From: Nitrosopumilaceae archaeon | GTDB lineage: Archaea > Thermoproteota > Nitrososphaeria > Nitrososphaerales > Nitrosopumilaceae | Reading direction: 5' to 3' | DNA length: 64,000 nucleotides | Assembly (NCBI GenBank): GCA_965214835.1 | Contig: CBDCCK010000002.1 | Coordinates: forward strand, 2,432,001 to 2,496,000 | Shown: positions 12,401-64,000 of the stretch, in pieces | How positions within the stretch are numbered: position 1 is the first letter of the stretch | How the letters are laid out: each line of letters opens with the position of its first letter | Notes under the pieces: model-generated | The model's database searches: none | Told to the model about the DNA's origin: nothing | The model's input: the letters and a program-made list of their open reading frames with translations, nothing else | Translations under genes and position numbers: made by a program

Positions 12401-13317
12401 TGGCCGCAACCGAGCTGAAGAGCAAGGGATGGAGCACACGCACATCACTGCAGTACAGCGGGGCAACCAGGACTGCACTGTACTACGAGAAGACGCCCAG
12501 AAAGGTGTTGCCTGACAGGCAGACTGTCATGCATGTGGAACGGATTGGTAAGCAGAGGCCTACATACGGCACGCGCCGCATGGTAGCCCAGATAAGACGC
12601 CAGACCGGCGTGCCGACAAACCGCAAAAGGATACAGCAGATATACCGCAAAATAGGCTGGATCACGCCTAAAAAGACCAAAAACGACATAATCCGGGCCG
12701 GTAAAAGGGGCAGGTTCAAGCCCACAGGACCAAACCAACTGTGGGAGACTGACATCACGTACGTCTGGTGTGGCGTTGACGGGTGGTGCTACTGCTTTAA
12801 CGTAATCGATACGTTCACCCGGAAGTGGATAACATACGTATTTGACACGCAGGCCACCGCACAGGTAGCAGTCGAATCGCTGACAAAGGCAGTCTCCACG
12901 ATTTCGGCAGACGAGGCGCGCGGCCTGCTGGTCAGAAGTGACAACGGCGTCCAGTATACGAGCCGCGAATTCAAGGAAAGCATGAAGGCGCTTGGGGTAA
13001 GGTGTGAGTACATCTGGCACAACACGCCCGAGCAGAACGGACATGTCGAGTCATTTCACAAGACTTGTGGTCAGGGCAGCCCCCGGCAAGAGTGGTGGAT
13101 CGAGCAGAACGGACATGTCGAGTCATTTCACAAGACCCTCAAAAAGGAGTACGTCTGGCCGCACGACTTTGCCAGGTTCCAGGATGCAGAAGCCGTCCTG
13201 GCAGAGGCGTTTGCGGACTACAACCAGGACAGGATCCACTCGGCGCTGGGATACCTGACACCAGACGAGTTTGTCCGAAAAACCCAGAAAAGACAGGAGG
13301 AGGTGCCTCAAAAATGA
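12400..13317 (+). CDS. IS3 OrfB integrase-core transposase with a 24-aa in-frame insertion
   Basis: PNQLWETDITY, SDNGVQY, EQNGHVESFHKT present twice, YNQDRIHSALGYLTP. Confidence 0.88.
   Translation: MAATELKSKGWSTRTSLQYSGATRTALYYEKTPRKVLPDRQTVMHVERIGKQRPTYGTRRMVAQIRRQTGVPTNRKRIQQIYRKIGWITPKKTKNDIIRAGKRGRFKPTGPNQLWETDITYVWCGVDGWCYCFNVIDTFTRKWITYVFDTQATAQVAVESLTKAVSTISADEARGLLVRSDNGVQYTSREFKESMKALGVRCEYIWHNTPEQNGHVESFHKTCGQGSPRQEWWIEQNGHVESFHKTLKKEYVWPHDFARFQDAEAVLAEAFADYNQDRIHSALGYLTPDEFVRKTQKRQEEVPQK
13029..13136. repeat. 36-bp exact direct repeat flanking a 36-bp unrelated insert
   Basis: cgagcagaacggacatgtcgagtcatttcacaagac at 13029-13064 and 13101-13136. Confidence 0.95.
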
Positions 13318-21981: not shown

Positions 21982-22088
21982 GTGGCAGGGGCGGGGATTC
22001 CGGATGTTTTTGGAAGTCTTTCTTGCATCTCGGGCCTTGGGCGCCTGCGTCATGTGGCAGGGGCGGGGATTCCGGATGTTTTTGGAAG
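21982..22088. repeat. 35-bp exact direct repeat flanking a 37-bp unrelated insert
   Basis: gtggcaggggcggggattccggatgtttttggaag at 21982-22016 and 22054-22088. Confidence 0.95.
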
Positions 22089-34224: not shown

Positions 34225-34347
34225 TTAGCAGTCAAAAAAGGGCACGCTGGAGTTCTTGCACAGCGTGTTGTAGATGCCGAATCCGAAGATGATGGCTCCA
34301 AAGACTGCCATGGGCACGATGATCAGGAGGTTGGACTTTAGCCCCAT
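34225..34347 (-). CDS. Small membrane protein (40 aa)
   Basis: MGLKSNLLIIVPMAVFGAIIFGFGIYNTLCKNSSVPFFDC; TTTTATA box upstream. Confidence 0.55.
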   Translation of the reverse strand: MGLKSNLLIIVPMAVFGAIIFGFGIYNTLCKNSSVPFFDC

Positions 34348-34385
34348 GCAGAAAACCTGCAGTCAGGGTATAAAATTGCACCCGA

Positions 34386-34805
34386 CTATGCGATCTCAAC
34401 GGTCAGGGTTGCAGTCGTCTTTGGATCCTGGAGCGCCCGTACCATGCTTCTGGGAAGGGAGTCAGATGCCTTGTCGGATTTTATGGCCATGGTTCTAGGG
34501 CACGTAAAGCCGCTTTTTCGAATCACGATGTCCCCGGGATGGCTCAGCTCAAGTCCCGGATGGCCCCTCCCCTCAAAGGAGAACGCCTGTCTGCCTACGA
34601 CAATGCTAAAGCGAACCCTGGTCTGCGGATCCCTCAGCCTTTCTTTGAGATCCTCCGGCAGGCCTCCACATGCGGCTGATGCGTTGACCCCGACGATGCA
34701 GTCGCCGCTGGGGGTAAGATCAGGATCCCGCGTGATCTCGATTGTCTTTTGATGGAGTGATCTTATGTTCTCATGGCCGGTAAATGAGATTTCAAACCGC
34801 ACCAC
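34386..34805 (-). CDS. DUF371 family protein
   Basis: GHENIRSLHQKTIEITRD..LTPSGDCIVGV, IVIRKS.F.CPRT, DKASDSLPR. Confidence 0.88.
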   Translation of the reverse strand: MVRFEISFTGHENIRSLHQKTIEITRDPDLTPSGDCIVGVNASAACGGLPEDLKERLRDPQTRVRFSIVVGRQAFSFEGRGHPGLELSHPGDIVIRKSGFTCPRTMAIKSDKASDSLPRSMVRALQDPKTTATLTVEIA

Positions 34806-34941
34806 TCAACGGCTTTGTGCGCATATTTTAAAATAGTTCTCACGTCAGGCATGATTTCAAACCGTACCCGTCATGTAGCCAAATGAGGCGTGCATTGAGC
34901 CAAAACCAGGCGGGGATGCAAGCGGACCGGCGAGCGTCCGG

Positions 34942-35051
34942 ACTTGAGACGTGTCTTGAACGGCCACAGACATGACATGGTTTGCACCGAGTGCCTAAAA
35001 TGCGCAAGATGCAAACTTGAGACGTGTCTTGAACGGCCACAGACATGACAT
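34942..35051. repeat. 37-bp exact direct repeat flanking a 36-bp unrelated insert
   Basis: acttgagacgtgtcttgaacggccacagacatgacat at 34942-34978 and 35015-35051. Confidence 0.95.
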
Positions 35052-35149
35052 CTCGCATGATGGTCACACAGTCCCGTGTGCTCAAACGGCATGCTGCAGG
35101 ATGCGCGTTTTATCTGAATCCAAAGGCGGTGCCCCACAGACACGCAGGA

Positions 35150-35650
35150 TCCCACTGCAGTCACGTAGAGACGTGTCGCGCGATGAGATGCAAGCTATCC
35201 GTACAGATTGGGATAAGACATGCCGCAAATCATATGTTGTGTGGATACGTCAGATAAGGGGCGGAGGCGGATCTTCACTGATCCGTCTGCAGTCCCTAGG
35301 CGTTTTCGGGCCCCATGCCGGGCCGCATGGGGACTGCACCGATGTCCAGCAGGCACGGATCAAAAAGTGGCACCTGAACACATCTGCAAGATCCTCAGGC
35401 GTGATGTCCGGCGGCGACGGCGACCTCTGGGTGGATCCGTGCCGGGGATAGACCATGTCAGGAGGATGCAGGTGCGGCGACAAGTTCTGATGCAGGTGCG
35501 GCACCGTGTACTGGAAACGGCAAGTACGAGTCTGCCTCCCCTCAGCGGTTAGGCAGGCCGGTATGCGACCGTGAGATTCATGGCTGGCCAGTGATGAAAG
35601 ATGGCCTCACACGAACCGGTGTTTTACCGCGCCATGCCATAACCCTGTAC
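35150..35650 (+). pseudogene. Highly degraded transposase-like remnant (IS5-like)
   Basis: Fragments such as ARIKKWHLN..LWVDP resemble IS5 N-terminal segments; weak. Confidence 0.35.
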
Positions 35651-35907
35651 TCAAAAAAGATCCCCTAAACAGTGCGTCATCTACGCCAGGCAGCCGATTA
35701 TGATTTTGATGGTTGTCCACTCACACAAAATCCAGCCTGCCTTCGGCCACATATGACACGTCCTCCGATCGGCTCCCCGTCCCTGCGCCCACGCGGCGGT
35801 GCCGGGATCACGGATCGGCGGTTCCTGATCGGCTTAGCGACACATGACAAAATTGGCAAAATTTTTACACCGATTCCTTCTATACTAGGTTCCCTCCCTA
35901 CCTACGT

Positions 35908-36246
35908 ATGTCGTGTGAGAACTGCGGTGCCGTGATCCAGATTGGCGACGAGGCCGTGTACGCCTGCCCGAGCTGCGGATACGAGTTTGAGGGTGCCGTC
36001 AGCTCCCCCGCGGGCATGGACTATGTCGTGACAAGCTATGCAAAGTCAGGACGCAAGAGAAAGCATGTGTGCAGAGGAACCTGCCGGAAGTATGAGACGC
36101 ATACCATGGCTAGTGGGGTGGCGTATTGCAACACGTGTGACAAATACATGCGGCTTGATGATACCTCACGATGCCCGTGCTGCGGCAACATACGGCTTCG
36201 GCACGGAAACCGCAGGTGCAAGGGGATCAAGGTTGCACGGTACTGA
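35908..36246 (+). CDS. Cys-rich zinc-finger protein
   Basis: CENC, CPSC, CRGTC, CNTC, CPCC motifs. Confidence 0.7.
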   Translation: MSCENCGAVIQIGDEAVYACPSCGYEFEGAVSSPAGMDYVVTSYAKSGRKRKHVCRGTCRKYETHTMASGVAYCNTCDKYMRLDDTSRCPCCGNIRLRHGNRRCKGIKVARY

Positions 36247-36475
36247 CGCCCGGGGATGAGGCCGGGGTAGCCTCGTACAGCGGCAGTGCCCGGCCTGCGG
36301 CTGAGTTGGGGATCTACGGGTAGGCCCGCTGCGCATATGCGCACGACTCGGCCGGAGACGGCATGCCATGGCCGACTTGATGCACGAGGCCACGTCCCCG
36401 TACTTACCATGCATGAAAATCACGGCTACGCGTGAATTCATATCTGATCGGTTCAGAAGAGGCCGACCCCGTACG

Positions 36476-43819: not shown

Positions 43820-45028
43820 ATGAAGCCAACAAAGATGAGAAACTCGCAGATGTACCGCGCAGCCTACGCGGCTAAAAGCGCGCAGGTATCCAGCCCACTC
43901 TCAAAGAACCTGCAGGGCAAGTACGTAAAAAAGTCCGTCAGGATAGTCGCAGGTGACGCGGTCAGGGTAGTCAGGGGCGAGTACAAGGGGGTTGACGGCA
44001 AGGTCGCGCAGGTCGATACTGCAACCGGCAGGATATCAATAGAGGGAATCAAAAAGGAAAAGACCCGCGGGGACAAGTACGACGTGTTCATCCACGCATC
44101 AAACCTCATAGTCACCGATCTTGACACGGAGGATCCGTGGAGGATGAGAAAGCTAAAGGGAGACGGCAAAGCGCCATCCGGACAGGCATCCCGGGAGGAT
44201 TCAGGGGCCGAGGATGCTGCCCCCCAGCGGGTTCATCTGGGCATACCCGACTCTGAGCCGGCACCCACGGAGCAGGAGGGAGAGGATGCTGCCCCCCAGC
44301 GGGTTCATCTGGGCATACCCGACTCTGAGCCGGCACCCACGGAGGATCAAGCTGGAGAGCCAGTGCAGTCCGAGGAGCAGGCCGCTGATGATGCAGGCGC
44401 AGAGTCAGAGGATCAGGCCGGAGAGCCAGTGCAGTCCGAGGAGCAGGCCACCGATGATGCAGACACGGCCGGCGCAGAGTCCAAAGATCAAGCTGGAGAG
44501 CCAGTGCAGTCCGAGGAGCAGGCCACCGATGATGCAGGCGCAGAGTCCAAAGATCAAGCTGGAGAGCCAGTGCAGTCCGAGGAGCAGGCCGCTGATGATG
44601 CAGACACGGCCGGCGCAGAGTCCAAAGATCAAGCTGGAGAGCCAGTGCAGTCCGAACAGCAGGCCGCTGATGATGCAGGCGCAGAGTCAGAGGATCAGGC
44701 CGGAGAGCCAGTGCAGTCCGAGGAGCAGGCCACCGATGATGCAGACACGGCCGGCGCAGAGTCAGAGGATCAGGCCGGAGAGCCAGTGCAGTCCGAGGAG
44801 CAGGCCACCGATGATGCAGGCGCAGAGTCAGAGGATCAGGCCGGAGAGCCAGTGCAGTCCGAGGAGCAGGCCACCGATGATGCAGACACGGCCGGCGCAG
44901 AGTCCGAGCAGGAACAAACAAAGAGCAAGGAAAGGTCATGGATGTCACGGTTCCGGTCACGTGTGACACGGACGTCAGAACCGGAACAAACTAAAGACAA
45001 AGAAAAGTCAGGAGATGCAGAAGAATAA
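43820..45028 (+). CDS. rpl24: 50S ribosomal protein uL24 with about 290-aa acidic repeat extension
   Basis: KOW motif GDAVRVVRGEYKG, IHASNL; tail of tandem repeats; stop abuts the rps4e start. Confidence 0.92.
   Translation: MKPTKMRNSQMYRAAYAAKSAQVSSPLSKNLQGKYVKKSVRIVAGDAVRVVRGEYKGVDGKVAQVDTATGRISIEGIKKEKTRGDKYDVFIHASNLIVTDLDTEDPWRMRKLKGDGKAPSGQASREDSGAEDAAPQRVHLGIPDSEPAPTEQEGEDAAPQRVHLGIPDSEPAPTEDQAGEPVQSEEQAADDAGAESEDQAGEPVQSEEQATDDADTAGAESKDQAGEPVQSEEQATDDAGAESKDQAGEPVQSEEQAADDADTAGAESKDQAGEPVQSEQQAADDAGAESEDQAGEPVQSEEQATDDADTAGAESEDQAGEPVQSEEQATDDAGAESEDQAGEPVQSEEQATDDADTAGAESEQEQTKSKERSWMSRFRSRVTRTSEPEQTKDKEKSGDAEE
44210..44905 (+). repeat. Coding tandem repeats in rpl24
   Basis: Two copies of EDAAPQRVHLGIPDSEPAPTE, then eight alternating 66/75-bp units. 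Confidence 0.92.
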
Positions 45029-47822: not shown

Positions 47823-48050
47823 CCATACGTTCTGGTTCTACAAGGGCTTTTTCGGCCGGGTGCAGGCGGCGCACTGCATGGCAGTATCCCGCGGCATCCT
47901 ACCTGACTGTAGTGCCATACAGCTGGGGCCCTTCAGTGCTTTCGGACGTGTTTTGTCATATCTGGTGGGGCAATAATTAAAATAATTGCCCCAGCTTGCC
48001 CTTGGCCAGACGTGCATACGTATTTTATCCGTGAAAAAGGCAGTACGGAC

Positions 48051-49712
48051 ATGGCACAGCAGGTTCCAGACATCATACCGGTACGGATGCTTACGCAGTA
48101 TGCGTATTGCAAGCGTCTCTCATACATGGAATGGGTCCAGGGCGAGTTTGAATACAATACGGAGGTGATAGAGGGCAAACATAATCACCGCAACGTGGAC
48201 AAGTCATCTGAGAGAAGAAAGGCAGGAAAGGAGGAAGATGAAAAGATCCATACGCGCTCCGTTACGCTCTCTGATGACAAAATTGGCCTCGTAGCAAAGA
48301 TGGATCTGCTGGAGATAAGCGGCAGTCATGCCACCCCGGTAGAGTACAAACGAGGCAGCACGCCAGATACTGCCGAGAGGACGCATCTGGATCACAGGAT
48401 ACAGGTGTGCGCGCAGGGGCTCCTGCTGCGTGCCAACGGATACGAATGCACAAAGGGCATAGTCTACTATGTGTCCTCAAAGCAGCGCGTAGAGGTGGAC
48501 TTTGATGACAGGATGGTGGCAGAGACGCTGCAGATGATACACGACATGAAGGAGACGATGGCCCTGGGCTCCATGCCTCCCCCGCTGGTAGACAGCCCCA
48601 AGTGCCCGAGATGCTCGCTTGTTGGCATATGCATGCCCGATGAGACCAACATGCTCTCCGATGTCGGGTCAGGTACGAGCCAAGAGCGGATCCGCAGAAT
48701 GTATCCAATGAGGGACGACGCGGTTCCGGTATACGTGCAAGAGCAGGGCGCGCGCGTTACAAAGTCCAATGACCGCATACATGTCATGATAAACGGGCAG
48801 GTGGCAAGGAAGATCCGCCTCATTGACATCTCTGAGATCACGCTGTTTGGAAACGTGCAGATTACAACCCAGGCCGTACGGGAGCTGTGCAACAGAAACA
48901 TACCCATATGCTACATGACCTATGGCGGGTGGTTTACAGGCATGACCACCGGCATGGTACACAAGAACATAGAGCTTCGCATGGCCCAGCATAAAAAGCA
49001 CTCGGCCAACAACGCGAGGATGGACATAGCCAGGAGCATAGTATACGGGAAGATCAAAAACTGCACTACGCTGCTGCGCAGAAACCACAAGGGCATGCCG
49101 GAGAAGGTGCTTGGCAGGCTTGACGAGTTTGCAGATCAAGCAAGGCACGCCCGCAGGTATGACGCCCTGCTGGGCATCGAGGGCATGGCGGCAAGGGTGT
49201 ACTTTTCAGAGTTCAATGGCATGATAAAGGACGAATCCGTCGGCTTTGAGTTCACGGAAAGGAACAGGAGGCCTCCCCGCGATCCCATCAATGCGCTCCT
49301 GTCATTTCTGTACTCTGTCCTGACGCGGCAGGCCACAGTTACTGCAGGCAGGGTCGGGCTGGATCCGTATCTTGGGTTTTTGCACATGCCAAAGTACGGG
49401 CGTCCCGCCCTGGCACTTGATCTGATAGAGGAGTTCAGGCCGCTTGTTGCAGACTCTGTGTGCATCACGGTCATAAACGGCGGTGAGGTTACAAACAAGG
49501 ACATGATAAAGACAAAATTCGGCGTCAACATGACGTCTGCGGGAAGGCGCGCAGTCATAGCCGCATACGAGAGGCGCATGGACTCTACCGTGACACACCC
49601 GGCCCTTGGCTATTCGGCAAGCTACCGGCGCATCATGGAGACTCAGGCAAGGCTGCTCTCAAGGCACCTGCTAGACGAGATACCCTCATATCCTGCATTT
49701 AGGACAAGATGA
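48051..49712 (+). CDS. cas1: CRISPR-associated Cas4-Cas1 fusion
   Basis: Cas4: YCKRL, MDL..PVEYKRG, KCPRCSL..C. Cas1: LGIEG.AA..YF, RNRRPPRDPINALLSFLY, GFLH, LALDLIEEFRP. Confidence 0.95.
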   Translation: MAQQVPDIIPVRMLTQYAYCKRLSYMEWVQGEFEYNTEVIEGKHNHRNVDKSSERRKAGKEEDEKIHTRSVTLSDDKIGLVAKMDLLEISGSHATPVEYKRGSTPDTAERTHLDHRIQVCAQGLLLRANGYECTKGIVYYVSSKQRVEVDFDDRMVAETLQMIHDMKETMALGSMPPPLVDSPKCPRCSLVGICMPDETNMLSDVGSGTSQERIRRMYPMRDDAVPVYVQEQGARVTKSNDRIHVMINGQVARKIRLIDISEITLFGNVQITTQAVRELCNRNIPICYMTYGGWFTGMTTGMVHKNIELRMAQHKKHSANNARMDIARSIVYGKIKNCTTLLRRNHKGMPEKVLGRLDEFADQARHARRYDALLGIEGMAARVYFSEFNGMIKDESVGFEFTERNRRPPRDPINALLSFLYSVLTRQATVTAGRVGLDPYLGFLHMPKYGRPALALDLIEEFRPLVADSVCITVINGGEVTNKDMIKTKFGVNMTSAGRRAVIAAYERRMDSTVTHPALGYSASYRRIMETQARLLSRHLLDEIPSYPAFRTR

Positions 49713-49715
49713 GGC

Positions 49716-50006
49716 ATGCGCAACAGGTATCTGGTGTGTTATGATGTCAGCGATCCCGTGCGGCTTGTCAAGACGTACAAAAAGATGAACGGATACGGGG
49801 ATCCGGCGCAGTACTCTGTCTTTATGTGCGACCTTAGCGCAGGGGAGCTGGTAATGATGAAGGAAGAGCTAGGAGATCTGCTAAACCTTGACGAGGACAG
49901 GGTTCTCATAGTGGACATTGGGCCTGCAGAAAAGCAGGACAGGCGCATAATGACGATGGGGGCGGCGCCATCTAGAACCAAAAGGGAGGCATCCATCGTA
50001 GTATGA
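49716..50006 (+). CDS. cas2: CRISPR-associated Cas2
   Basis: YLVCYDVSD, QYSVF. Confidence 0.95.
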   Translation: MRNRYLVCYDVSDPVRLVKTYKKMNGYGDPAQYSVFMCDLSAGELVMMKEELGDLLNLDEDRVLIVDIGPAEKQDRRIMTMGAAPSRTKREASIVV

Positions 50007-50177
50007 CGTACGAGAGGCCCGGAGCGCTTGCGTTACGAGGGAGGTGTTTGAAAACACGTTATATATGAGGATGGGGGCGCATGCCATCCAAGTGCACTCG
50101 ATACGAAAAACGCAAGTGCTGTACAAAAAAGATGCTGATCACACACCCGTAATGACCGATACAGTCGGGATTACGGG
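50007..50177 (+). promoter_or_regulatory. CRISPR leader
   Basis: Non-coding stretch between cas2 and repeat 1; repeat 3' end ATTGAAGC implies plus-strand transcription. Confidence 0.75.
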
Positions 50178-53100
50178 ATTTCCGCAACGATAAAGTTGCG
50201 GCCCCATTGAAGCTAATGCTTGTTACTGTGGCGATATTCATTTCCGCAACGATAAAGTTGCGGCCCCATTGAAGCTGCGTCCAGTCTATCACGGATTGGA
50301 AGGCCGCAATCATTTCCGCAACGATAAAGTTGCGGCCCCATTGAAGCGTCCTAGCCGGAAGTACCCAGTGGGCCGCCCAGATATTGCATTTCCGCAACGA
50401 TAAAGTTGCGGCCCCATTGAAGCAACGGTAATGCCGTCGCGGCTGTAAAGTTTCCAGCCTGACATTTCCGCAACGATAAAGTTGCGGCCCCATTGAAGCT
50501 GATCGTCTCGATGTCTTACAATGGTTCTTTTTGTCTATTTCCGCAACGATAAAGTTGCGGCCCCATTGAAGCATTATTCTATCACGGGTTTCCGGCGACA
50601 TGATGCTGAATTTCCGCAACGATAAAGTTGCGGCCCCATTGAAGCCGTAGCCAGGCTGAAAACGTCGAAGATCGGGTTCGTCAATTTCCGCAACGATAAA
50701 GTTGCGGCCCCATTGAAGCGACGGCCTGGCAGTTAACGTCCACATAGCGACTAAATTTCCGCAACGATAAAGTTGCGGCCCCATTGAAGCGCAGGCCCCT
50801 GACAAGAGCTTGGCAGGCCCCTGACAAATTTCCGCAACGATAAAGTTGCGGCCCCATTGAAGCACTGGTCAAGTCGACTTCCCAGTTAAGGGATATTGTA
50901 TTTCCGCAACGATAAAGTTGCGGCCCCATTGAAGCTCTTCAGGGGAGCTGCCTAACAGTTGTCTGTGATATGCCGATTTCCGCAACGATAAAGTTGCGGC
51001 CCCATTGAAGCATTTCCTCGCATTCCTCCCGGAAACCTCACCCCTTGCATTTCCGCAACGATAAAGTTGCGGCCCCATTGAAGCGGACTAGGAGCCGCAG
51101 TAGCACTTAACGCGTTTCTTATTTCCGCAACGATAAAGTTGCGGCCCCATTGAAGCGCCCTAATGTTGCGATTGCGCCAATATCGGGAATAAATTTCCGC
51201 AACGATAAAGTTGCGGCCCCATTGAAGCCGTGCATATGTAGGGCTTATCCCCAATCGCGCAAACTCGATTTCCGCAACGATAAAGTTGCGGCCCCATTGA
51301 AGCTTCCCTTACCTCGCCGACATCTACTCGACCTTCTGCCATTTCCGCAACGATAAAGTTGCGGCCCCATTGAAGCGTCGAAATTTCCCACGCTCTGCGA
51401 TAATCACTATCCGATTTCCGCAACGATAAAGTTGCGGCCCCATTGAAGCGGATTTCGTCTGCGCTATTCTGACGCACCTGGGATAGATTTCCGCAACGAT
51501 AAAGTTGCGGCCCCATTGAAGCAATCCGCAGCTTGGCCGAATCGACCCTGATTGCCGTATTTCCGCAACGATAAAGTTGCGGCCCCATTGAAGCAAGAAT
51601 CCCAGAACCATAACGTCCTCTATGCCCTCGCATTTCCGCAACGATAAAGTTGCGGCCCCATTGAAGCGTTATTTTCTGATGCCGAGTAAGTTGTCTTGCA
51701 CTTTCATTTCCGCAACGATAAAGTTGCGGCCCCATTGAAGCGAGCTGGAATCCCTCAAGATGATCTGGGAGATCCTAATTTCCGCAACGATAAAGTTGCG
51801 GCCCCATTGAAGCCGTTCTGCAGCTGGAGCGGGGATATCCACCTTTTGTATTTCCGCAACGATAAAGTTGCGGCCCCATTGAAGCGAGCACGTGGCCGTC
51901 AATCGGCGAGTACTTTGACTTGACATTTCCGCAACGATAAAGTTGCGGCCCCATTGAAGCCGCGACGACTGCATCTGCACCAGGGCAGAATACGAGATTT
52001 CCGCAACGATAAAGTTGCGGCCCCATTGAAGCTGGCTAATCAAAAATATCTCACGGTGTCTTTCCAGCAATTTCCGCAACGATAAAGTTGCGGCCCCATT
52101 GAAGCCTGATCAGCCAATGCACACTAGGCATTATTGCTCCTCAATTTCCGCAACGATAAAGTTGCGGCCCCATTGAAGCGAGCCAAGGAGCTAACGGTAC
52201 AGGCCCGACTTCTTTGTATTTCCGCAACGATAAAGTTGCGGCCCCATTGAAGCATCATACTGAATATGATAACTGCCAATTTCAAAATAATTTCCGCAAC
52301 GATAAAGTTGCGGCCCCATTGAAGCGCGGCACGTGGCACGCACAGGCCCAAGAGATACTGGGTATTTCCGCAACGATAAAGTTGCGGCCCCATTGAAGCG
52401 GTTCAGTAAGGCGATCTTTGCATATGAGGCAGTATGTATTTCCGCAACGATAAAGTTGCGGCCCCATTGAAGCAATGTTTGCGCCTCTTGATAGTTCTTT
52501 TCTTGACTGATTTCCGCAACGATAAAGTTGCGGCCCCATTGAAGCACATTAAGTCCGAACCAAATCAAGTTCATACCATTCGCATCATTTCCGCAACGAT
52601 AAAGTTGCGGCCCCATTGAAGCCCGTTAATACCCCGTGCGTAAAACGGTATTACTATGGTAATTTCCGCAACGATAAAGTTGCGGCCCCATTGAAGCGCC
52701 CGTGAATGGCTTCAAGCCAAACCAACGGCAATAGATTTCCGCAACGATAAAGTTGCGGCCCCATTGAAGCTTTTATTTAGAATAAAGACATGGCTATTAG
52801 ATTCGGATTTCCGCAACGATAAAGTTGCGGCCCCATTGAAGCAAAAAAGGACAATAAAACGAAGGAAAAAACGCCATGCCTATTTCCGCAACGATAAAGT
52901 TGCGGCCCCATTGAAGCCTCATGGCATGACAGGCATTCGTTCCACAGATTGTAGATTTCCGCAACGATAAAGTTGCGGCCCCATTGAAGCTTGATAGTTA
53001 CCTTGCGCGTTTAGCGCCTCTAATGAGATTTCCGCAACGATAAAGTTGCGGCCCCATTGAAGCTTTCGTGCCTATACTCACGGTACTCACGGTATTTCAA

Positions 53101-56100
53101 TTTCCGCAACGATAAAGTTGCGGCCCCATTGAAGCGCACCTATCGTCATCATCAAGATACGCGATGACCTCCATTTCCGCAACGATAAAGTTGCGGCCCC
53201 ATTGAAGCGATAATTCTGATCTGATAGATGCAATACGTGAGTATATTTCCGCAACGATAAAGTTGCGGCCCCATTGAAGCACCCTTTTTGTCCTTGTATG
53301 CCACAACAACAAGCCCGATTTCCGCAACGATAAAGTTGCGGCCCCATTGAAGCAAACAAGTATGCTTGGCCTGCCGCCGCGCGCCTCTTATTTCCGCAAC
53401 GATAAAGTTGCGGCCCCATTGAAGCGTTACTGTAGATTTACCGGCAATACAGCGATATCCATATTTCCGCAACGATAAAGTTGCGGCCCCATTGAAGCGA
53501 TTAATCTTATGAAATGCTGTGAATGTGATTCACAGAAATTTCCGCAACGATAAAGTTGCGGCCCCATTGAAGCGGGGGGCTATACATGACTGAGAGAGTC
53601 AAGACAAAAGGATTTCCGCAACGATAAAGTTGCGGCCCCATTGAAGCAATATGATTGAAGGATAACGTGCCACCTGCTCCAATATTTCCGCAACGATAAA
53701 GTTGCGGCCCCATTGAAGCTCGTCAAACGCCTGGAAGCCCACTACGCTGTATACACCTATTTCCGCAACGATAAAGTTGCGGCCCCATTGAAGCGCTGGG
53801 GAGATAGGCAGGATAGAGAAACATCTGAAATTTCCGCAACGATAAAGTTGCGGCCCCATTGAAGCGACGGCTTGTATGATCCCAAGGATATAATCGAGCT
53901 GCATTTCCGCAACGATAAAGTTGCGGCCCCATTGAAGCGAACCATCGAACATTAACACCCCCCCTTTTTTTTAAATTTCCGCAACGATAAAGTTGCGGCC
54001 CCATTGAAGCTGCCAACGCGGATATTAACAACGAGGCAATAGTACGATTTCCGCAACGATAAAGTTGCGGCCCCATTGAAGCGTGTATTTCTTCTTTTGT
54101 CGGCATTGTTATGTATTGTATTTCCGCAACGATAAAGTTGCGGCCCCATTGAAGCGTATTTCCTTGACGTATGGTGCATGGATTTTGTTCACATTTCCGC
54201 AACGATAAAGTTGCGGCCCCATTGAAGCCCTTTTCTGCCCTAACGTCATGGTTTGTGATAACCGTCATTTCCGCAACGATAAAGTTGCGGCCCCATTGAA
54301 GCAATGCAAATCGGCCTTTACCGACATTCAGCACTATACTTATTTCCGCAACGATAAAGTTGCGGCCCCATTGAAGCGATTGAAGGTGAATGTGTTTGGT
54401 CGTACTTGTGGTACATTTCCGCAACGATAAAGTTGCGGCCCCATTGAAGCCGCAAAAGCCCAGTCTTTTTGCCAATCTTTTTGGTATTTCCGCAACGATA
54501 AAGTTGCGGCCCCATTGAAGCGTAGGTTATCTCTGCTCCCCGGATGCGGAAGTCTGGCAGATTTCCGCAACGATAAAGTTGCGGCCCCATTGAAGCGCGC
54601 AAAACCTCAATTATGTGCGCCTGCCATTTCTCATTTCCGCAACGATAAAGTTGCGGCCCCATTGAAGCCATTTTTGCAGCTTCTCCCGCTTCGTGCATTT
54701 CGGCATTTCCGCAACGATAAAGTTGCGGCCCCATTGAAGCAGCTTATTCCCCATGAGTAGTATGTGGAGTAGTCGCTATTTCCGCAACGATAAAGTTGCG
54801 GCCCCATTGAAGCTAACTGGTATCGGCAAGCGTGTTAGGCTCTCAACCGTATTTCCGCAACGATAAAGTTGCGGCCCCATTGAAGCGCTGCTAGATGTGT
54901 TTGTGGATGATGCGAGGTTATAGATTTCCGCAACGATAAAGTTGCGGCCCCATTGAAGCTTGTAGGGTCTTCATGGCCTGTTGTCGAAATTCTGAATTTC
55001 CGCAACGATAAAGTTGCGGCCCCATTGAAGCATCACCGTGCGACCCGACGATGAGATTGAAGCCTCCGATTTCCGCAACGATAAAGTTGCGGCCCCATTG
55101 AAGCAAATATGCCGATTACGCCAAAGTCCGCCAGCTGCCGCATTTCCGCAACGATAAAGTTGCGGCCCCATTGAAGCGAAAAGACCTTCGGCGGTCAAGC
55201 CAACACAATCCGAAATTTCCGCAACGATAAAGTTGCGGCCCCATTGAAGCCGGCGGTTGAAAGTCATGGTGAGCCAGCCCGAGGCATTTCCGCAACGATA
55301 AAGTTGCGGCCCCATTGAAGCGTTGAAGACTGCATCCTATCATTCAGTATTCTGACAATTTCCGCAACGATAAAGTTGCGGCCCCATTGAAGCGTTACTA
55401 AAGCTGTCATCCCCAAAGTGGTCTATACTCATTTCCGCAACGATAAAGTTGCGGCCCCATTGAAGCATACCCGTTATGCAGGAGTTCCATGCGTACTTCA
55501 TATTTCCGCAACGATAAAGTTGCGGCCCCATTGAAGCGTGTTTTTCCGTGCTGATACCCGTAATAGATGAGAGATTTCCGCAACGATAAAGTTGCGGCCC
55601 CATTGAAGCCAATGTTGCCGCTCGGCGCTGGAACTGAACTATCATATTTCCGCAACGATAAAGTTGCGGCCCCATTGAAGCAGAGTTTTGTTGTCTCTGG
55701 GCTTGTGGTCTCAGAGTTATTTCCGCAACGATAAAGTTGCGGCCCCATTGAAGCACAAGCAACTAAAATCACGAGCACATGCGGTATATTCATTTCCGCA
55801 ACGATAAAGTTGCGGCCCCATTGAAGCAATAACCCCACCTTTCTAGAATAGCCATGCAAACCGATTTCCGCAACGATAAAGTTGCGGCCCCATTGAAGCA
55901 ACGGCGTTGTTACATCCACTCGAATCATCCACGACTTCATACACGTTTATATTTCCGCAACGATAAAGTTGCGGCCCCATTGAAGCAACGGCGTTGTTAC
56001 TCTGACCAATTTTATCCACTCGAATTTCCGCAACGATAAAGTTGCGGCCCCATTGAAGCCCTTCTTTCGGGCCGATATCTGTGGAATGCTATTGCATTTC

Positions 56101-59100
56101 CGCAACGATAAAGTTGCGGCCCCATTGAAGCTTTAATCTTCATTCCTCTTTCTCCTGCTTTTTTGCCTATTTCCGCAACGATAAAGTTGCGGCCCCATTG
56201 AAGCATGAAAAAAATAATTTCTTAACTGAATAGTATAGGATCATTTCCGCAACGATAAAGTTGCGGCCCCATTGAAGCATTAGGCGTATATGGGGATGGT
56301 GATCTCCATATTTCAATTTCCGCAACGATAAAGTTGCGGCCCCATTGAAGCACGAAATTACGTGACCAAGTTAGGAGCTTGATGCGTCATTTCCGCAACG
56401 ATAAAGTTGCGGCCCCATTGAAGCAGTTTGCAATTGAGCAGACTGGCGGATCAGCTGCAGATTTCCGCAACGATAAAGTTGCGGCCCCATTGAAGCCGAG
56501 TTCCGGACTTACGGCAGATCTACTCATCGACTCGATTTCCGCAACGATAAAGTTGCGGCCCCATTGAAGCCCCCCAGCCGACAACCCGTACGCCTCGCTG
56601 TATCTGATTTCCGCAACGATAAAGTTGCGGCCCCATTGAAGCGATCCCAATCGAGGACGAGCACGGCCAGGACGGAGGCTAATTTCCGCAACGATAAAGT
56701 TGCGGCCCCATTGAAGCATTTTTGCTTGTGCGACTGTTTTCAAAGTTATCACTGATTTCCGCAACGATAAAGTTGCGGCCCCATTGAAGCTTATTGATGA
56801 AGGCGACAAGATGAAGTCAGAAGATCAATTTCCGCAACGATAAAGTTGCGGCCCCATTGAAGCTGCGTGCTCGGTGTCTGGTATGGACGCGCCTCAAGAT
56901 TTCCGCAACGATAAAGTTGCGGCCCCATTGAAGCTTGACAAAGATACTGTCGGTATCCCCGTACAGGACAGATTTCCGCAACGATAAAGTTGCGGCCCCA
57001 TTGAAGCATATCCCCCCTACACGGTTAGCAGTCTGATAACGTACATTTCCGCAACGATAAAGTTGCGGCCCCATTGAAGCTGGGAGGTCGTACGGACCGA
57101 ATGATGACGTCCGCACATTTCCGCAACGATAAAGTTGCGGCCCCATTGAAGCACAATCTGGTTCCAGAGCCCTCTATATCGAACAGACGCATTTCCGCAA
57201 CGATAAAGTTGCGGCCCCATTGAAGCCACCTGATCAGGTTCTAGACCCATGGACCTGACTTCAGATTTCCGCAACGATAAAGTTGCGGCCCCATTGAAGC
57301 TATTTTCCCGGCTCCTGATGTGGTCAATGAGCCTTTGATTTCCGCAACGATAAAGTTGCGGCCCCATTGAAGCTCAAATCCCAATTCATCACCTAATTTA
57401 CTCAACTTACATTTCCGCAACGATAAAGTTGCGGCCCCATTGAAGCATGCATCTTCCCCACGCTCCAAATCGTACAGCTCGGATTTCCGCAACGATAAAG
57501 TTGCGGCCCCATTGAAGCGCGTCAGGATATGCCTTCTGCAACTTCCTTTGCTTGATTTCCGCAACGATAAAGTTGCGGCCCCATTGAAGCTTGAATTCTG
57601 TCTGCATAATGCCTGAACAGGTTCAGATTTCCGCAACGATAAAGTTGCGGCCCCATTGAAGCCCTGGTTTTCATGTAAAAAAATAGGTATTGGGTATTAA
57701 ATTTCCGCAACGATAAAGTTGCGGCCCCATTGAAGCTTGTTGTGGGTGATTTTCCACTGATGCATTTGTACCCATTTCCGCAACGATAAAGTTGCGGCCC
57801 CATTGAAGCGGGTTGGATGCTGGCCGTGATTGGCCGCAGGTTTGGTATTTCCGCAACGATAAAGTTGCGGCCCCATTGAAGCGGGTTTGATGCTGGCCGT
57901 GATTGGCCGCAGGTTTGGTATTTCCGCAACGATAAAGTTGCGGCCCCATTGAAGCGATGCAATACGTTGCCAGTCGTTAATTTCACACCGATATATTTCC
58001 GCAACGATAAAGTTGCGGCCCCATTGAAGCTGGCCTATAACGGTGAAACGCTATTGCCATTTGGCCATTTCCGCAACGATAAAGTTGCGGCCCCATTGAA
58101 GCGGGTATCAGTTATGTCGTATTTGTGCGTCCAGTTGGCCTGATTTCCGCAACGATAAAGTTGCGGCCCCATTGAAGCCAAGCAAAAGGTTGCCAATACT
58201 GTTGAGAAAAAACAAATTTCCGCAACGATAAAGTTGCGGCCCCATTGAAGCATAGATTCGATTTAGAGGGCAAACTGTTTTTCCGAAATTTCCGCAACGA
58301 TAAAGTTGCGGCCCCATTGAAGCAGGTCTGCCGCCGCGTACCGTGGCGGCAATGCAGTAATTTCCGCAACGATAAAGTTGCGGCCCCATTGAAGCTTCGC
58401 AAGGAAGGACTCCTAATCTTCCATTTTTTGGATTTCCGCAACGATAAAGTTGCGGCCCCATTGAAGCGTGGTGGTACCGGTGGCATTGGCATGGTTTGAG
58501 TAGATTTCCGCAACGATAAAGTTGCGGCCCCATTGAAGCACTTCTCCAACCAGCGCTCCGGCGACGACTCGATCCGGATTTCCGCAACGATAAAGTTGCG
58601 GCCCCATTGAAGCGCGGCAGATTTTGGGGCTGCTTATGATTATTCTTGGGATTTCCGCAACGATAAAGTTGCGGCCCCATTGAAGCATTTTTTGTGAATC
58701 GGCGAACCAGGTGCCAGAGCCGTATTTCCGCAACGATAAAGTTGCGGCCCCATTGAAGCGTCTATCATATCCACTTTAATTGTGGATACGTACATCTATT
58801 TCCGCAACGATAAAGTTGCGGCCCCATTGAAGCACTGAGCGATACCGATCCTATGCATACAACACGACAATTTCCGCAACGATAAAGTTGCGGCCCCATT
58901 GAAGCATGGGTATCTATCTGGAATTTCCGGGCGAACACACTCGATTTCCGCAACGATAAAGTTGCGGCCCCATTGAAGCAATAATGCTTCCTCTTCTTCC
59001 TGCGTCGGCGGTGCCATTTCCGCAACGATAAAGTTGCGGCCCCATTGAAGCAGAATGTGTATTCAGCCTATGGATACTATTGTGCGAATTTCCGCAACGA

Positions 59101-60954
59101 TAAAGTTGCGGCCCCATTGAAGCGCTGAGGATGTCAGGGAGGTACTCGAGCACAGGCTAATTTCCGCAACGATAAAGTTGCGGCCCCATTGAAGCTGATA
59201 TAGATCCTCGATTTGGTTGTCGGGCATTTTCTTGATTTCCGCAACGATAAAGTTGCGGCCCCATTGAAGCTAAAGTGAGGTTGAGGTTGTATTCTGCGAC
59301 AAAGGGATTTCCGCAACGATAAAGTTGCGGCCCCATTGAAGCTCGGACACCAAGCTTGCGGTCCGGTTCCAGACCTTCTCGATTTCCGCAACGATAAAGT
59401 TGCGGCCCCATTGAAGCGTGAAATACTACGGCGACACAATGTCCAAGATCAGCAATTTCCGCAACGATAAAGTTGCGGCCCCATTGAAGCATATCCTTAT
59501 CTAGTGTATCTGCTTGATAGTTGATCTATTTCCGCAACGATAAAGTTGCGGCCCCATTGAAGCGAGGCGGGGGCTGTGACAAAAGGCGTATTGGCAGCTA
59601 TTTCCGCAACGATAAAGTTGCGGCCCCATTGAAGCGTCCATTGTGCAGGTGATGAGTAGCCCGCGAATGGATCATTTCCGCAACGATAAAGTTGCGGCCC
59701 CATTGAAGCGCAGGGCAGGGCTAAAACTATCAAAGTTTCCATAACGATTTCCGCAACGATAAAGTTGCGGCCCCATTGAAGCTCTGCTCACTGGTTTTGA
59801 TTGAATCAATTCAATATGAATTTCCGCAACGATAAAGTTGCGGCCCCATTGAAGCCGTCACGACTTTGCGGAAAGTCTGGCCATGTATTCCCCCATTTCC
59901 GCAACGATAAAGTTGCGGCCCCATTGAAGCGTGGTTCCGCGATAGCCGTCGGACTCGCGCCCGGTCCATTTCCGCAACGATAAAGTTGCGGCCCCATTGA
60001 AGCGCTGACCAATTACTTTTTTCCCAGCCACGACTAAAATATTTCCGCAACGATAAAGTTGCGGCCCCATTGAAGCTGATCGTTCCTGTATAAAGGGAGT
60101 TTGGCCACGTTCATTTCCGCAACGATAAAGTTGCGGCCCCATTGAAGCAATTACGCTGGCTTATCCGGTTTAGGTTTTTGACATAATTTCCGCAACGATA
60201 AAGTTGCGGCCCCATTGAAGCTTCGGTATCGATTTGGGTTTCTAGCGATTGATCAGATTTCCGCAACGATAAAGTTGCGGCCCCATTGAAGCCAAAGAAG
60301 TCAATCCCTTCGTTTTGCATCTTGATGATCTATTTCCGCAACGATAAAGTTGCGGCCCCATTGAAGCATTCAGCCTGAGTGTTACTCAGGGATCAGAAAA
60401 ATGTATTTCCGCAACGATAAAGTTGCGGCCCCATTGAAGCTGTGTATCAGAAGATGAAGAAGAAATAATAAGATATATTTCCGCAACGATAAAGTTGCGG
60501 CCCCATTGAAGCATGTATGAGCTGTGGATCGACAAACAGAAAAAAGATCGATTTCCGCAACGATAAAGTTGCGGCCCCATTGAAGCGATTTGGCTGTGGT
60601 TGATATCCTGAAATTTATAGACATTTCCGCAACGATAAAGTTGCGGCCCCATTGAAGCATCTTGGCGCCTGCCTCGCAGAGCAGCTCGATGATGGATTTC
60701 CGCAACGATAAAGTTGCGGCCCCATTGAAGCCCAGCAGATCTGCTGCCAGATTGCGGGCGGCAGCTGGATTTCCGCAACGATAAAGTTGCGGCCCCATTG
60801 AAGCGCGCAAAATGTCTTTATTTAGTCCGGCTCCGGACTTTTGATTTCCGCAACGATAAAGTTGCGGCCCCATTGAAGCTCTGTTTACTGCTGCGTCAAG
60901 TGTCGCGCGTGAAGCTGGATTTCCGCAACGATAAAGTTGCGGCCCCATTGAAGC
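50178..60954 (+). CRISPR. Type I-G (I-U) CRISPR array, about 148 repeats
   Basis: 36-bp repeat ATTTCCGCAACGATAAAGTTGCGGCCCCATTGAAGC with CCGCAAC/GTTGCGG hairpin; spacers mostly 34-41 bp; counted by eye. Confidence 0.98.
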
Positions 60955-60970: not shown

Positions 60971-62076
60971 TAGCAACGGTCACAAGTAATTGAGGGCTTT
61001 GACCGGCGATCTGTAAATGTACTTGTACATGCAAAGGTGGGCAAATGACACCGTCCTATAATATTCGGATATGGTGTGCCGCAGCTCGCTGATCCTTCTG
61101 TACACTATCCCCCTGAAAACAAAATGTTTGCCCAGGTTCCAGCATTCTTCCACGATATTGAGGTACGGCGATCCTTTCGGAATCATTATCAGCCTGACGT
61201 CGGGATGGCCCGCCAGATATTCTGCGACATCAGTAGATCTGTGCACACTCCACCTATCGCAAAAGACTGCAACCTTGCCAAACTTGATGCGCAGCGCCTC
61301 CAGACATTCTATGAACTGCACCGACGTAAACGATCCCGTAAACGTCCTGAATAGCCTTCTGCCGTCTTCTGCGATGCTTCCAAACACGGCCACCTTTGTG
61401 TGGTCCCCCGAATACGATGCCACGCTTCTGGTGCCGACCGGACCCCACACGTATCTGTCGTATGCGCCCTGCACGAAGAACGCCTCATCAGATGACACCA
61501 GCGTAAAACCGTCGTTTTTCAGGCACGGAATCCGCACGTTTTCAAGGTATCGCTGCCACGAGTATACCGAGCTTGGGGTGGCATGGTTGACATGTATGTT
61601 TTGCACCTTGCGGCGCGACAGGCCGTGCTGGCACATCAGTCTTCGGACATGCTCTATGCTGTATTCTATCCCGGTGGCATTCCTTATGTCATCGCGTACC
61701 GTCATGACATCGGTACTTTTGCATGCAGTGGACAGATCCATTATGGCTGCAATACTTTCTCTGTCCACCTTTGGTCTGCATCCGGAACGGGGAAGATCCC
61801 GGAGACCGTCTATGCCGCCCTCCGAAAACCTCGCCAGCCAGTTGCGCACGGAATTCTCACTGCACCGGATCTTTCTTGCAGTCTCGGGTACGCCCATGTC
61901 GTCTTCTAGCACAAACATCAGCGCCATGATCTTCTTGTAGACTTTGACATCCTTTTCTTTGCGCATGGCCTCTGACAGAATGTCTGTTTCTTTTGTCATA
62001 CATACTGCGCCAGTTACGTGATCATTATACCTTTCGAATGACCTTGTTTTGGCTCAAAGACTTATGCTCGTTGCTA
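60971..62076 (-). mobile_element. IS630-family insertion sequence in the trailer spacer
   Basis: TAGCAAC/GTTGCTA ends; TA duplication at 60969-60970 and 62077-62078. Confidence 0.92.
60980..61999 (-). CDS. IS630-family transposase, apparently intact
   Basis: GLRDLPRSG.RP, SDEAFF, DRWSVH, PKGSPYLNIVEECW. Confidence 0.9.
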   Translation of the reverse strand: MTKETDILSEAMRKEKDVKVYKKIMALMFVLEDDMGVPETARKIRCSENSVRNWLARFSEGGIDGLRDLPRSGCRPKVDRESIAAIMDLSTACKSTDVMTVRDDIRNATGIEYSIEHVRRLMCQHGLSRRKVQNIHVNHATPSSVYSWQRYLENVRIPCLKNDGFTLVSSDEAFFVQGAYDRYVWGPVGTRSVASYSGDHTKVAVFGSIAEDGRRLFRTFTGSFTSVQFIECLEALRIKFGKVAVFCDRWSVHRSTDVAEYLAGHPDVRLIMIPKGSPYLNIVEECWNLGKHFVFRGIVYRRISELRHTISEYYRTVSFAHLCMYKYIYRSPVKALNYL

Positions 62077-62178: not shown

Positions 62179-64000
62179 GTGGATTTTGTAAAAGCATTCA
62201 AATCACTCACTGAACATGAGCCTTATCCATGGCAACAAAGAATGTTTAAAAGGTTCATAGACGGAAACGTGCCAGACGTATTAGACATTCCGACAGGATT
62301 AGGAAAAACATCTGTCATTGCAATATGGTTGTTGGCATTAGCACATACAAAAGAATTGAAGAAAGATACAGTTTCTACCCGTATGGTATACATAGTTGAC
62401 AGACGTGTAATTGTAGATCAAGCATCTGCAGAAGTGGAAAACATACGCAAAAAAATCAATGAAGAACCTATAAAATCCATTTTAGGTAACATCGGGGGAG
62501 ATTTGAATGTAAGTAGATTGCGAGGAGGTGGAGGTCTAGATGACAGCAGGCAATGGCTACGAGATCCACACAAACCTGCAATAATAGTAGGGACTACAGA
62601 TATGATAGGGAGCCGTTTGCTCTTTTCAGGTTATGGGGCTGGTAAGAAAATTAGATCGTTTTACGCGGGTTTGTTGGGTCAAGATTCCTTAATTGTGCTA
62701 GACGAAACACATCTTTCACCTGCTATGGAAAGAGTGCTAAAAGATATCAAACATGTCTCACATGAAATAGAAGAAAAAAATCTATTATATCCACCAAAAA
62801 TCCTTCTGATGTCAGCTACACAACACACTAGCAACTCAGACAGGTTAGGATTAGATGAAGATGATCTAAAACTCGAAAATGTCAAAAAACGCTACAAAGC
62901 ACCTAAAAAGCTAGAATTGCAGCAAAGTGATAAAAAAGAAGTACAAAATGAAATATTTAATCACGCGATTAAAATGAGCGGGAGGGTTATAATATATGTT
63001 CAAAAACCATCCGATGCAAAAGCCATATCCAAAAAACTCCGTAAAGAGGAAAAAGAGAGCATAGTTCTAACAGGTACCATTAGAGGATTTGAGCGGGACC
63101 GCTTGGCTGACGAAGAAGCATACAATGCGTTTCTAGACAAAGAATGGAATCATGATAGAACTGTATACATGGTGTCAACATCAGCAGGAGAAGTAGGGGC
63201 GGATTTTGATGCAGATCACATGGTATGTGACATGACCACGATGGACTCATTCATACAAAGGTTAGGGAGAGTAAACCGGAGTGGGGGAAGAAAATCAAGT
63301 ATAGTGGTAGTATACAGCAAAGAGGATTTTAATAAAAAGGACAAATATAGTGAAAGTAAAAAAGCCACAGCACATATCTTGGAAAAACTAGTGAAGGAAA
63401 ACAACAATGATGTGAGCCCGCATCGGTTGGACAAAATACCCTCAGAGGAAAAAAACCAAGCGTTTTCCCCCACACCAGAGACTCAGCCACTAACCAAGGA
63501 GATATTGGATATGTGGTCCATGACGTCGATCTACAAAGAATATTCATCCAGACCCAAGGTAAGTCACTGGCTGCATGGCAAACCAGAACGATCCGAGCCA
63601 GACACATACATCGTATGGAGAGATGATGTCGAATACCTAACTGATGCTGACGATTCAGAATTAGAACATCTCTTTGAACGCCATAGAATACTCCCACAAG
63701 AGATAGTCCGAGAGAAAACAAACGATGTTTATAATTTTCTAAAACAGCTAGGCAGTAACGACAATGCAATCATTATAACAAATGGTAGGTATGAAAAATT
63801 CAACATATCTAAAGATGTACAAGAAAGAAAAGATTTGAAATTCGCAACCATAGTTCTACCATGCAGAGTGGGGGGCCTGAATTCTGATGGATTTTTGGAT
63901 GTAAAATCCAAGCGGTCAGTACTCGACGTGGCTGACATTCCTCACATGAAAAATCGCATAAGGGTTCTCGTAAAAGAAGTGGAGGAAGAAGACGGCAGCA
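62179..64000 (+). CDS. cas3: Type I-G Cas3 helicase-nuclease (partial)
   Basis: GTG start; PYPWQ, DIPTGLGKTSVIAIW, YIVDRRVIVDQ, GTTDMIGSRLLFSGYG, LDETHL, STSAGEVGAD, QRLGRVNR. Helicase-first layout. Confidence 0.9.
   Translation, partial: MDFVKAFKSLTEHEPYPWQQRMFKRFIDGNVPDVLDIPTGLGKTSVIAIWLLALAHTKELKKDTVSTRMVYIVDRRVIVDQASAEVENIRKKINEEPIKSILGNIGGDLNVSRLRGGGGLDDSRQWLRDPHKPAIIVGTTDMIGSRLLFSGYGAGKKIRSFYAGLLGQDSLIVLDETHLSPAMERVLKDIKHVSHEIEEKNLLYPPKILLMSATQHTSNSDRLGLDEDDLKLENVKKRYKAPKKLELQQSDKKEVQNEIFNHAIKMSGRVIIYVQKPSDAKAISKKLRKEEKESIVLTGTIRGFERDRLADEEAYNAFLDKEWNHDRTVYMVSTSAGEVGADFDADHMVCDMTTMDSFIQRLGRVNRSGGRKSSIVVVYSKEDFNKKDKYSESKKATAHILEKLVKENNNDVSPHRLDKIPSEEKNQAFSPTPETQPLTKEILDMWSMTSIYKEYSSRPKVSHWLHGKPERSEPDTYIVWRDDVEYLTDADDSELEHLFERHRILPQEIVREKTNDVYNFLKQLGSNDNAIIITNGRYEKFNISKDVQERKDLKFATIVLPCRVGGLNSDGFLDVKSKRSVLDVADIPHMKNRIRVLVKEVEEEDGS

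Follow-up and report, generated by a model that had tools for sequence, protein, structure and literature searches.

The window analyzed here is the whole stretch C2:2432001-2496000 (64,000 nt) of genome G000, which has a size of 3.22 Mb. Archaeal amoA is present in the genome, and the organism is therefore an ammonia-oxidising archaeon. Within the window, a 37-nt string, ACTTGAGACGTGTCTTGAACGGCCACAGACATGACAT, is found in two exact copies that enclose a spacer-sized insert. We refer to this structure as unit 3, and it interrupts a short open reading frame (ORF):

34871..35164, minus strand: interrupted short ORF, whose N-terminal motif DHHARCHVCGRSRHV is homologous to the N-termini of sulfotransferase-family paralogues
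34942..34978, no strand assigned: first target copy, 37 nt and exact, of which 36 nt are probably the true duplication and one a chance match
34979..35014, no strand assigned: spacer-sized insert of 36 nt, or of 37 nt if the duplication is 36 nt
35015..35051, no strand assigned: second target copy, 37 nt and exact

An earlier sequence-only reading of this DNA had described exact 37-bp repeats on both sides of an insert that translates to VCTECLKCARC. We confirm the repeats at 34942-34978 and 35015-35051, the letters of the insert are as given there, and the translation was reproduced from one frame of 34980-35012. The start-to-start distance of the two target copies is 73 nt. The 37-nt string has exactly two copies in the window, and these remain the only ones when up to three mismatches are allowed. 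In the shuffle control for this 37-mer, none of 100 shuffles had two matches. In the genome as a whole, both the 37-mer and the insert are found at this single locus, and the only other matches to the target are two partial ones of 18 nt in diverged paralogues. Both are single-locus sequences, and the structure is real. A search of 34300-36300 against Rfam returned no family at E≤1.

Contigs from the runs of two studies contain both junctions of the insert, and unit 3 is thus not an assembly artefact. In X1 and X4 the insert unitig is as deep as its flanks, with 25.8 against 25.1 and 22.4 in X1 and 37.2 against 38.5 and 43.3 in X4. X5 and X6, which belong to another study, hold a strain with 10 differences over both flanks of unit 3. 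The unit is present in this strain with one difference in the first copy, but the insert unitig, with depths of 9.25 and 13.5, falls below the flanks (27-44 and 32). As a hint only, because contig depth is a poor measure of alleles, this points to a mixture of filled and empty alleles of unit 3 in the X5/X6 population. No contig bridging an orthologous empty allele was found. Recombination between the two target copies would excise the unit without leaving a scar.

The adaptation module of the resident CRISPR-Cas system is located 13 kb downstream of unit 3:

48012..49712, plus strand: cas4/cas1 fusion (Cas4g/Cas1g), the genome's only Cas1 and the presumed integrase
49716..50006, plus strand: cas2
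50007..50177, plus strand: CRISPR leader of 171 nt, which ends ...ACGGG directly before the first repeat
50178..60954, plus strand: CRISPR array with 148 identical 36-nt repeats and 147 spacers
62179..64000, plus strand: cas3g (type I-G), which extends past the window and is followed by cas8g2, cas7g and csb2

By its NCBIfam scores, the system is assigned to type I-G. The bit scores exceed the cut-off for Cas4g/Cas1g (754.8 vs 560), Cas3g (630 vs 400), Cas7g (Csb1; 141 vs 38) and Csb2 (211 vs 45), and Cas8g2 alone stays under it (101 vs 125). The 148 identical repeats point to an active adaptation module. Spacers of 35-41 nt make up 145 of the 147 in the array, with 45 of 36 nt, 54 of 37 nt, 18 of 38 nt and 16 of 39 nt, and the other two measure 26 and 51 nt. 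The insert of unit 3, with its 36 (or 37) nt, is inside the resident spacer range, and the period of 73 nt compares with 72-76 nt for most of the array. Its duplication of 37 nt stands against a resident repeat of 36 nt and a genome-wide mode of 36 nt.

An IS630-like (DDE_3) transposase gene at 60980-61999, between the end of the array and cas3g, splits the system, with adaptation genes and array on one side and effector genes on the other. Directly after the effector genes, the minus strand encodes a UvrD/PcrA-like helicase of 1045 aa with a C-terminal Cas4-like nuclease domain (L042:7864-11001, i.e., C2:2500864-2504001). A small second array with the variant repeat GCTTCAATGGGGCCGCGACATTACCGTCGCGGAAAT is found in opposite orientation at C2:135893-136400, far from any cas gene.

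The interrupted gene and its empty sites

The minus strand of the unit 3 target encodes DHHARCHVCGRSRHV, the motif at the N-terminus of the members of a small sulfotransferase family, and the homology of the interrupted ORF to these paralogous members ends where the insert begins. The insertion point is at about codon 50 of a short N-terminal fragment of this family. Before the insertion, the fragment had at most 93 codons from stop to stop and no sulfotransferase domain, and the insertion of 73 nt puts the ORF out of frame. ORFs L013 and L055 match each other with E=1e-25, and the 97-aa ORF at unit 3 matches L055 with E=1e-5. Neither the interrupted ORF nor the homologue in the relative described below was assigned to a Pfam family. 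Taken singly, unit 3 is a clean example, and probably a neutral one, of the structures discussed here.

The L055 paralogue (C2:2366447-2367499) bears an in-frame 72-nt unit of its own, just before the PAPS-binding loop and some 20 codons past the homologous motif. This small sulfotransferase family has been hit in two of its members, at most ~100 nt apart in homologous positions.

The homologous target is present once and without an insert in three paralogues of the same genome (C2:2572083, 2366522 and 1783549) and in a same-genus relative (G002:C148). In all four, direct alignments show that the homology continues on both sides of the target. These empty sites are paralogues at 71-82% identity and the homologue of one relative, not an orthologous allele. 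At this level of identity the paralogues are missed by the strict BLAST test for empty sites, which returned none for unit 3, and direct alignments were used for that reason.

A genome-wide family with the period of the array

Unit 3 belongs to a family of similar structures outside of the array, here called ectopic units. With both CRISPR arrays left out, direct repeats of 33-40 nt with at most two mismatches number 43 at spacings of 71-76 nt, compared to 10 at all the 55 other spacings in the range 50-110 nt. Most of the 43 (38) are exact. Among exact repeats with spacings of 69-77 nt, lengths of 36, 37, 38 and 39 nt occur 19, 11, 4 and 4 times, and all other spacings from 30 to 160 nt together hold only 12 of 36 nt and 10 of 37 nt. 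This distribution of lengths fits a 36-nt duplication with chance extensions at the ends, and the alternative that the sequence-only reading had offered for unit 3, 36 nt plus one chance match, is in line with it.

For the analyses below, the family consists of 43 units, with one low-complexity case taken out and one case with a spacing of 69 taken in; the low-complexity tandem repeats removed before counts are C2:1727198 and C2:2212075. They represent 42 independent events, and the copy in a duplicated segment (C2:1966990) was dropped wherever independent counts were needed. Each unit has its own target and its own insert, and no two are alike. For 22 of the 43 units, the genome has one or more paralogues with an empty site, meaning the target once with both flanks continuing and without the insert. 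Three more loci (C2:2513205, 2610439 and 2832639) hold the target three times and the same insert twice, a pattern expected of unequal recombination between duplicated copies; the recombination that would excise a unit could also account for these loci. The total of ectopic loci in the genome is about 45.

Three ectopic units are found inside the window, at 13029, 21982 and 34942, the last being unit 3. The other two are:

13029..13136, no strand assigned: sister unit 1, with a 36-nt duplication and a 36-nt insert, in frame in an rve-type transposase
21982..22088, no strand assigned: sister unit 2, with a 35-nt duplication and a 37-nt insert

The insert of sister unit 1 matches C2:902180-902215 at 35 of 36 positions with TTG as the upstream flank, and that of sister unit 2 matches C2:257418-257454 with an upstream TTC. 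The exact 72-nt duplication at 44210-44905 is no ectopic unit, as its copies are 63 nt long. This region consists of long tandem coding repeats, with periods of 66, 72, 75 and 141 nt, in the gene of an acidic repeat protein (43820-45028).

These observations bear on how unit 3 was made. A replication or repair accident, such as slippage or templated patch repair, might have produced a 37-nt duplication around 36 unrelated bases without Cas1. Chance repair events can yield single structures of the type repeat-insert-repeat, and the roughly 10 repeats of 33-40 nt at non-CRISPR spacings (about 0.2 per spacing) give a background for them. However, accidents at this rate would account for about one unit in the family of 43. 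The excess is seen at the CRISPR period alone, the repeat lengths peak at 36 nt, and the inserts of the sister units come from distant loci with a TTN PAM. We therefore regard an accident as very improbable.

A very small mobile element, or the trace left by some unknown transposase with duplications of about 36 bp, would suit the IS-rich genome and the location of about half of the ectopic units in IS or other multicopy DNA. This explanation includes the multicopy IS subterminal repeat structure that the sequence-only reading had itself set against an ectopic unit. Such a structure is absent here, as the insert and the 37-mer of unit 3 are both unique in the genome. An IS or MITE would be multicopy, with terminal inverted repeats and a short duplication, whereas the insert of unit 3 is unique in the genome and in 60 genomes of the family and the duplication is 36-37 nt. 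Furthermore, the inserts of the family are all mutually different, and those of the sister units are plain copies of ordinary chromosomal DNA. We know of no transposase family that makes 36-bp duplications, and a mobile element is hardly credible as the source of unit 3.

Our preferred reading is that unit 3 is, with high probability, the scar of an off-target ("ectopic") full-site spacer integration by the organism's own type I-G Cas4/Cas1-Cas2 complex. The sequence-only reading had already called it an ectopic unit of CRISPR type, and the geometry of unit 3, the genome-wide excess of such units, the empty sites and the PAM signature of the sister units strongly back this. With Cas4/Cas1-Cas2 as the presumed catalyst, the complex would be loaded with a prespacer of 36-37 nt and make two strand-transfer attacks on opposite strands of a non-CRISPR site with a stagger of about 36 bp, just as it would normally attack the two ends of a CRISPR repeat. 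Gap repair would then copy the 36-37 bp between the cuts, and the product would be target-insert-target with a 73-nt period, like one unit of the array. Against this reading stands the exact repeat of 37 nt rather than 36, for which a chance match or a slip of the ruler by 1 nt is the only explanation. The failure to find a protospacer for the insert, the chance-level likeness of the target to the CRISPR repeat, the empty sites that are paralogous rather than orthologous, and the near absence of units in the sampled part of a relative (G004) also count against it.

The ectopic units are unevenly distributed in the genome. ORFs of at least 150 codons are depleted of sites, with 25 of 42 compared to 78% of random sites (P=0.006). 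The transposase ORFs that were hit are of IS110, IS630 and rve type, and the other ORFs encode an S4-domain protein, a family-2 glycosyltransferase, a PMT/laminin-G protein, a sulfotransferase, an epimerase, a DNA methylase and an HtrA-like protease. In-frame insertions seemed to be over-represented within ORFs (15 of 21), but this count was circular, as frameshifts break the ORF used for classification. When sites were classified in the state before insertion, the numbers were 12 of 25 (P=0.32) and 23 of 42 overall (P=0.057), and the claim was rejected.

The 150 kb upstream of cas1 hold ten units against an expectation of 2.1 (P=8e-5), and a KS test on the distance gave P=1.5e-4. The zone of this cluster is C2:2.33-2.47 Mb and includes positions 1-35000 of the window. 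The minimum of the cumulative GC skew, a putative terminus, is also in the cluster zone, at ~2.34 Mb and roughly opposite the single orc1/cdc6 at 0.90 Mb. Therefore, nearness to the cas genes and nearness to the terminus are inseparable in this genome.

Sources of the inserts and choice of target

Eleven of 39 ectopic inserts have a match elsewhere on the chromosome that spans the insert and goes no further. Two whole-unit copies and one tandem repeat were excluded from this count. TTN is found beside one end in 7 of these 11 self protospacers and TTC in 5 of 11, for which the chance is 2/64 (P=1e-5). The Cas4/1 fusion of a Geobacter type I-U/I-G system is described with TTN as PAM and 36 bp as the main spacer length (excerpts of PMC6547450).

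None of the 147 array spacers matches the chromosome, and the difference from the ectopic inserts is significant (Fisher P=1e-8). Such a contrast would be expected if a self match were lethal for array spacers and harmless at ectopic sites, and it indicates that self-derived spacers persist only where they are unable to guide interference. The only array spacer with any match is spacer 41 (53136-53172), which agrees at 36 of 37 positions with C1:6366-6401 on the assembly's 13-kb second contig, inside a large glycosyltransferase gene and with a flanking TTC on the leader-facing side. This contig, which also bears an IS66 transposase gene, is targeted by the array and represents either an extrachromosomal element or a part of the chromosome that was left unplaced.

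Three of the 11 self protospacers (C2:902180-902215, 904372-904409 and 906373-906409) are located in a stretch of 4.2 kb that adjoins the genome's only orc1/cdc6 (C2:900127-901338) and a gene for the PolD small subunit. The stretch at 902-906 kb looks like a protospacer hot spot near the replication origin.

The source of the insert in unit 3 was sought in several ways. A blastn-short search of the own genome, an exact 34-mer search of viral and metagenome contigs, a search of genome and viral contigs with a codon-degenerate pattern for VCTECLKCARC, and a search of 60 genomes of the family with up to three mismatches all gave no match. The earlier proposal that the insert came from a zinc-finger gene elsewhere is thus not borne out in the own genome, the 60 family genomes or the viral, metagenome and genome contig collections, whether by exact or by codon-degenerate search. 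The in-phase CxxCxxCxxC reading of the insert is only suggestive.

For the analysis of cut sites, we used the 15 units with an unambiguous 36-nt duplication, which give 30 half-sites. Of these, 16 have G as the first duplicated base and 11 have C, i.e., G or C in 27 of 30 (P=1e-5), and the bases just outside the duplications favour C-A-G-G. The resident leader ends with GGG, and the spacer-side end of the repeat starts with GC on the bottom strand. In experiments, likeness of a target to the repeat or to the leader-repeat junction is a tendency and no strict requirement. When pooled targets were oriented by best identity and a null was treated by the same procedure, the targets shared 181 positions with the CRISPR repeat where 157 ± 9 were expected (P=0.004), and the excess was concentrated at T30, T31 and G32 of the repeat. 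A de novo search for orientation and motif by EM in the 15 targets gave no clear full-length motif. The sequence-only reading had advised building a motif from targets across the genome; a weak likeness to the repeat is seen only when the targets are pooled.

For unit 3 itself, that reading had seen the CRISPR repeat weakly mirrored in the reverse complement of the target. The letters are as stated and give 13 identities over 36 positions, but this is at chance level, as 31% of 20,000 random genomic 37-mers do as well (P=0.31). Read directly, the unit 3 target has no TTG at positions 30-32. Cas1-Cas2 of P. furiosus has the same kind of G/C preference in vitro, at sites one repeat length apart (excerpts of PMC6698737).

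Fate of unit 3 and relation to known off-target integration

A unit made by the integrase could by now have become a working mini-CRISPR ("neo-CRISPR") that is transcribed and processed into guide RNA. According to published work, off-target integration can seed new arrays (Nivala 2018, as cited in the excerpted texts of 10.1101/148544 and PMC6546382), and three loci of this genome have grown to three target copies. However, a functional array has repeats with a hairpin and a 3' handle for Cas6-type processing, and inspection of the unit 3 flanking copies revealed neither the CCGCAAC/GTTGCGG stem nor the ATTGAAGC end of the CRISPR repeat. In addition, no ectopic locus has gained a second, different spacer, as the three "double" loci repeat the same insert, and 11 of 39 units tolerate a self-matching insert, which speaks against interference by such inserts. 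Among the public runs, no RNA run holding unit 3 was found. A working neo-CRISPR at this site is thus very unlikely. Lacking the hairpin and the ATTGAAGC end, unit 3 is, as judged from its sequence, most likely an inert scar, i.e., a potential but unused "neo-CRISPR" seed rather than a working mini-array.

Integration of this kind is already known from laboratory work. Over-produced Cas1-Cas2 of the type I-E system in E. coli integrates off target and forms neo-CRISPR units (Nivala, Shipman and Church 2018, Nat Microbiol; excerpts of 10.1101/148544, PMC7054753 and PMC6546382). As in those units, the structures described here have a spacer-sized insert outside of the array and a repeat-length duplication of non-repeat sequence, in the presence of a resident Cas1-Cas2. 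In contrast to the excerpted E. coli work, they are natural and arose without over-expression, the system is an archaeal type I-G with a Cas4/Cas1 fusion, and about 45 loci are found in one assembled genome. For two other species, natural off-target cases are described in the excerpted text of 10.1101/148544 as "circumstantial evidence" only.

Full-site off-target integration in vitro has been reported for Cas1-Cas2 of Pyrococcus furiosus (excerpts of PMC6698737). Our results agree with this in the paired sites one repeat length apart on opposite strands, the G/C at the attacked positions and the weak likeness to the repeat, which in our case holds for pooled targets. The excerpted P. furiosus experiments used plasmids in vitro and have a 30-bp ruler, whereas here the ruler measures 36 bp, integration was into the chromosome, and selection has filtered the events.

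For isolated or mini arrays, an origin in off-target acquisition of spacers has been put forward (Shmakov et al. 2020, CRISPR J, as cited in the excerpted PMC13142298). The ectopic units resemble these arrays in having two repeats and one spacer far from the cas genes. They differ from the arrays as described in that excerpt in that their repeats are unrelated to the CRISPR repeat and different at each locus, and array finders based on repeat families would miss the link. The Cas4/1-Cas2 module of Geobacter sulfurreducens, which has a fused Cas4/Cas1 of the same subtype, acquires spacers that are mostly 36 bp long, and roughly half of the unique ones have TTN upstream (excerpts of PMC6547450). 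According to that excerpted text, array acquisition alone was scored, in E. coli, and integration at other sites goes unmentioned, whereas it is described here. Within the partial coverage of our literature search, no report was found of dozens of natural units in one genome, or of any for type I-G. What is new is therefore not the mechanism but its abundance in a natural genome and the type I-G context.

The natural frequency, landing sites and cost of off-target integration are largely unknown, as the evidence comes mainly from over-expression and test-tube work. The value of unit 3 is its membership in a set of about 45 events in an unusually rich setting. So many events by one integrase suffice to read the ruler, the cut-site preference, the choice of PAM and the sources of self DNA, and the set is free of the autoimmunity filter that shapes real arrays. 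We consider it likely that the type I-G Cas4/Cas1-Cas2 acts, and perhaps still acts, as a genome-wide insertional mutagen, and that the ~45 scars are a largely unselected natural record of adaptation. This record would comprise a sequence-independent ruler of about 36 bp, cut sites at G/C with a shared TTG at 30-32, frequent capture of self DNA with TTN, including the hot spot within 6 kb of orc1/cdc6, and integration concentrated in the 150 kb by the cas genes and the GC-skew terminus. It would also comprise insertions of 23-25 codons in open frames of cellular genes (S4-domain protein, glycosyltransferase, sulfotransferase, DNA methylase and HtrA-like protease) and reversibility by recombination. 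Such reversibility would explain both the loci with double inserts and the second population, where filled and empty alleles seem to be mixed. The set also demonstrates that CRISPR adaptation is able to disrupt genes or to extend them.

In G004, a relative of the same genus whose CRISPR-Cas system is orthologous, the 400 kb sampled around the array contain at most one candidate unit (L=39, d=72, 1 mismatch). In this sample, the system by itself is therefore no guarantee of ectopic units. The sampled region (G004:C1:1520001-1920000) has a G+C content of 38% against 52.6% in the present genome, which is a large gap within one genus. The first spacer of the array in the window (50178-50275) is only 26 nt, and the orthologous array in G004 also begins with a short interval (58 nt start to start); a short leader-adjacent first interval may thus be conserved.
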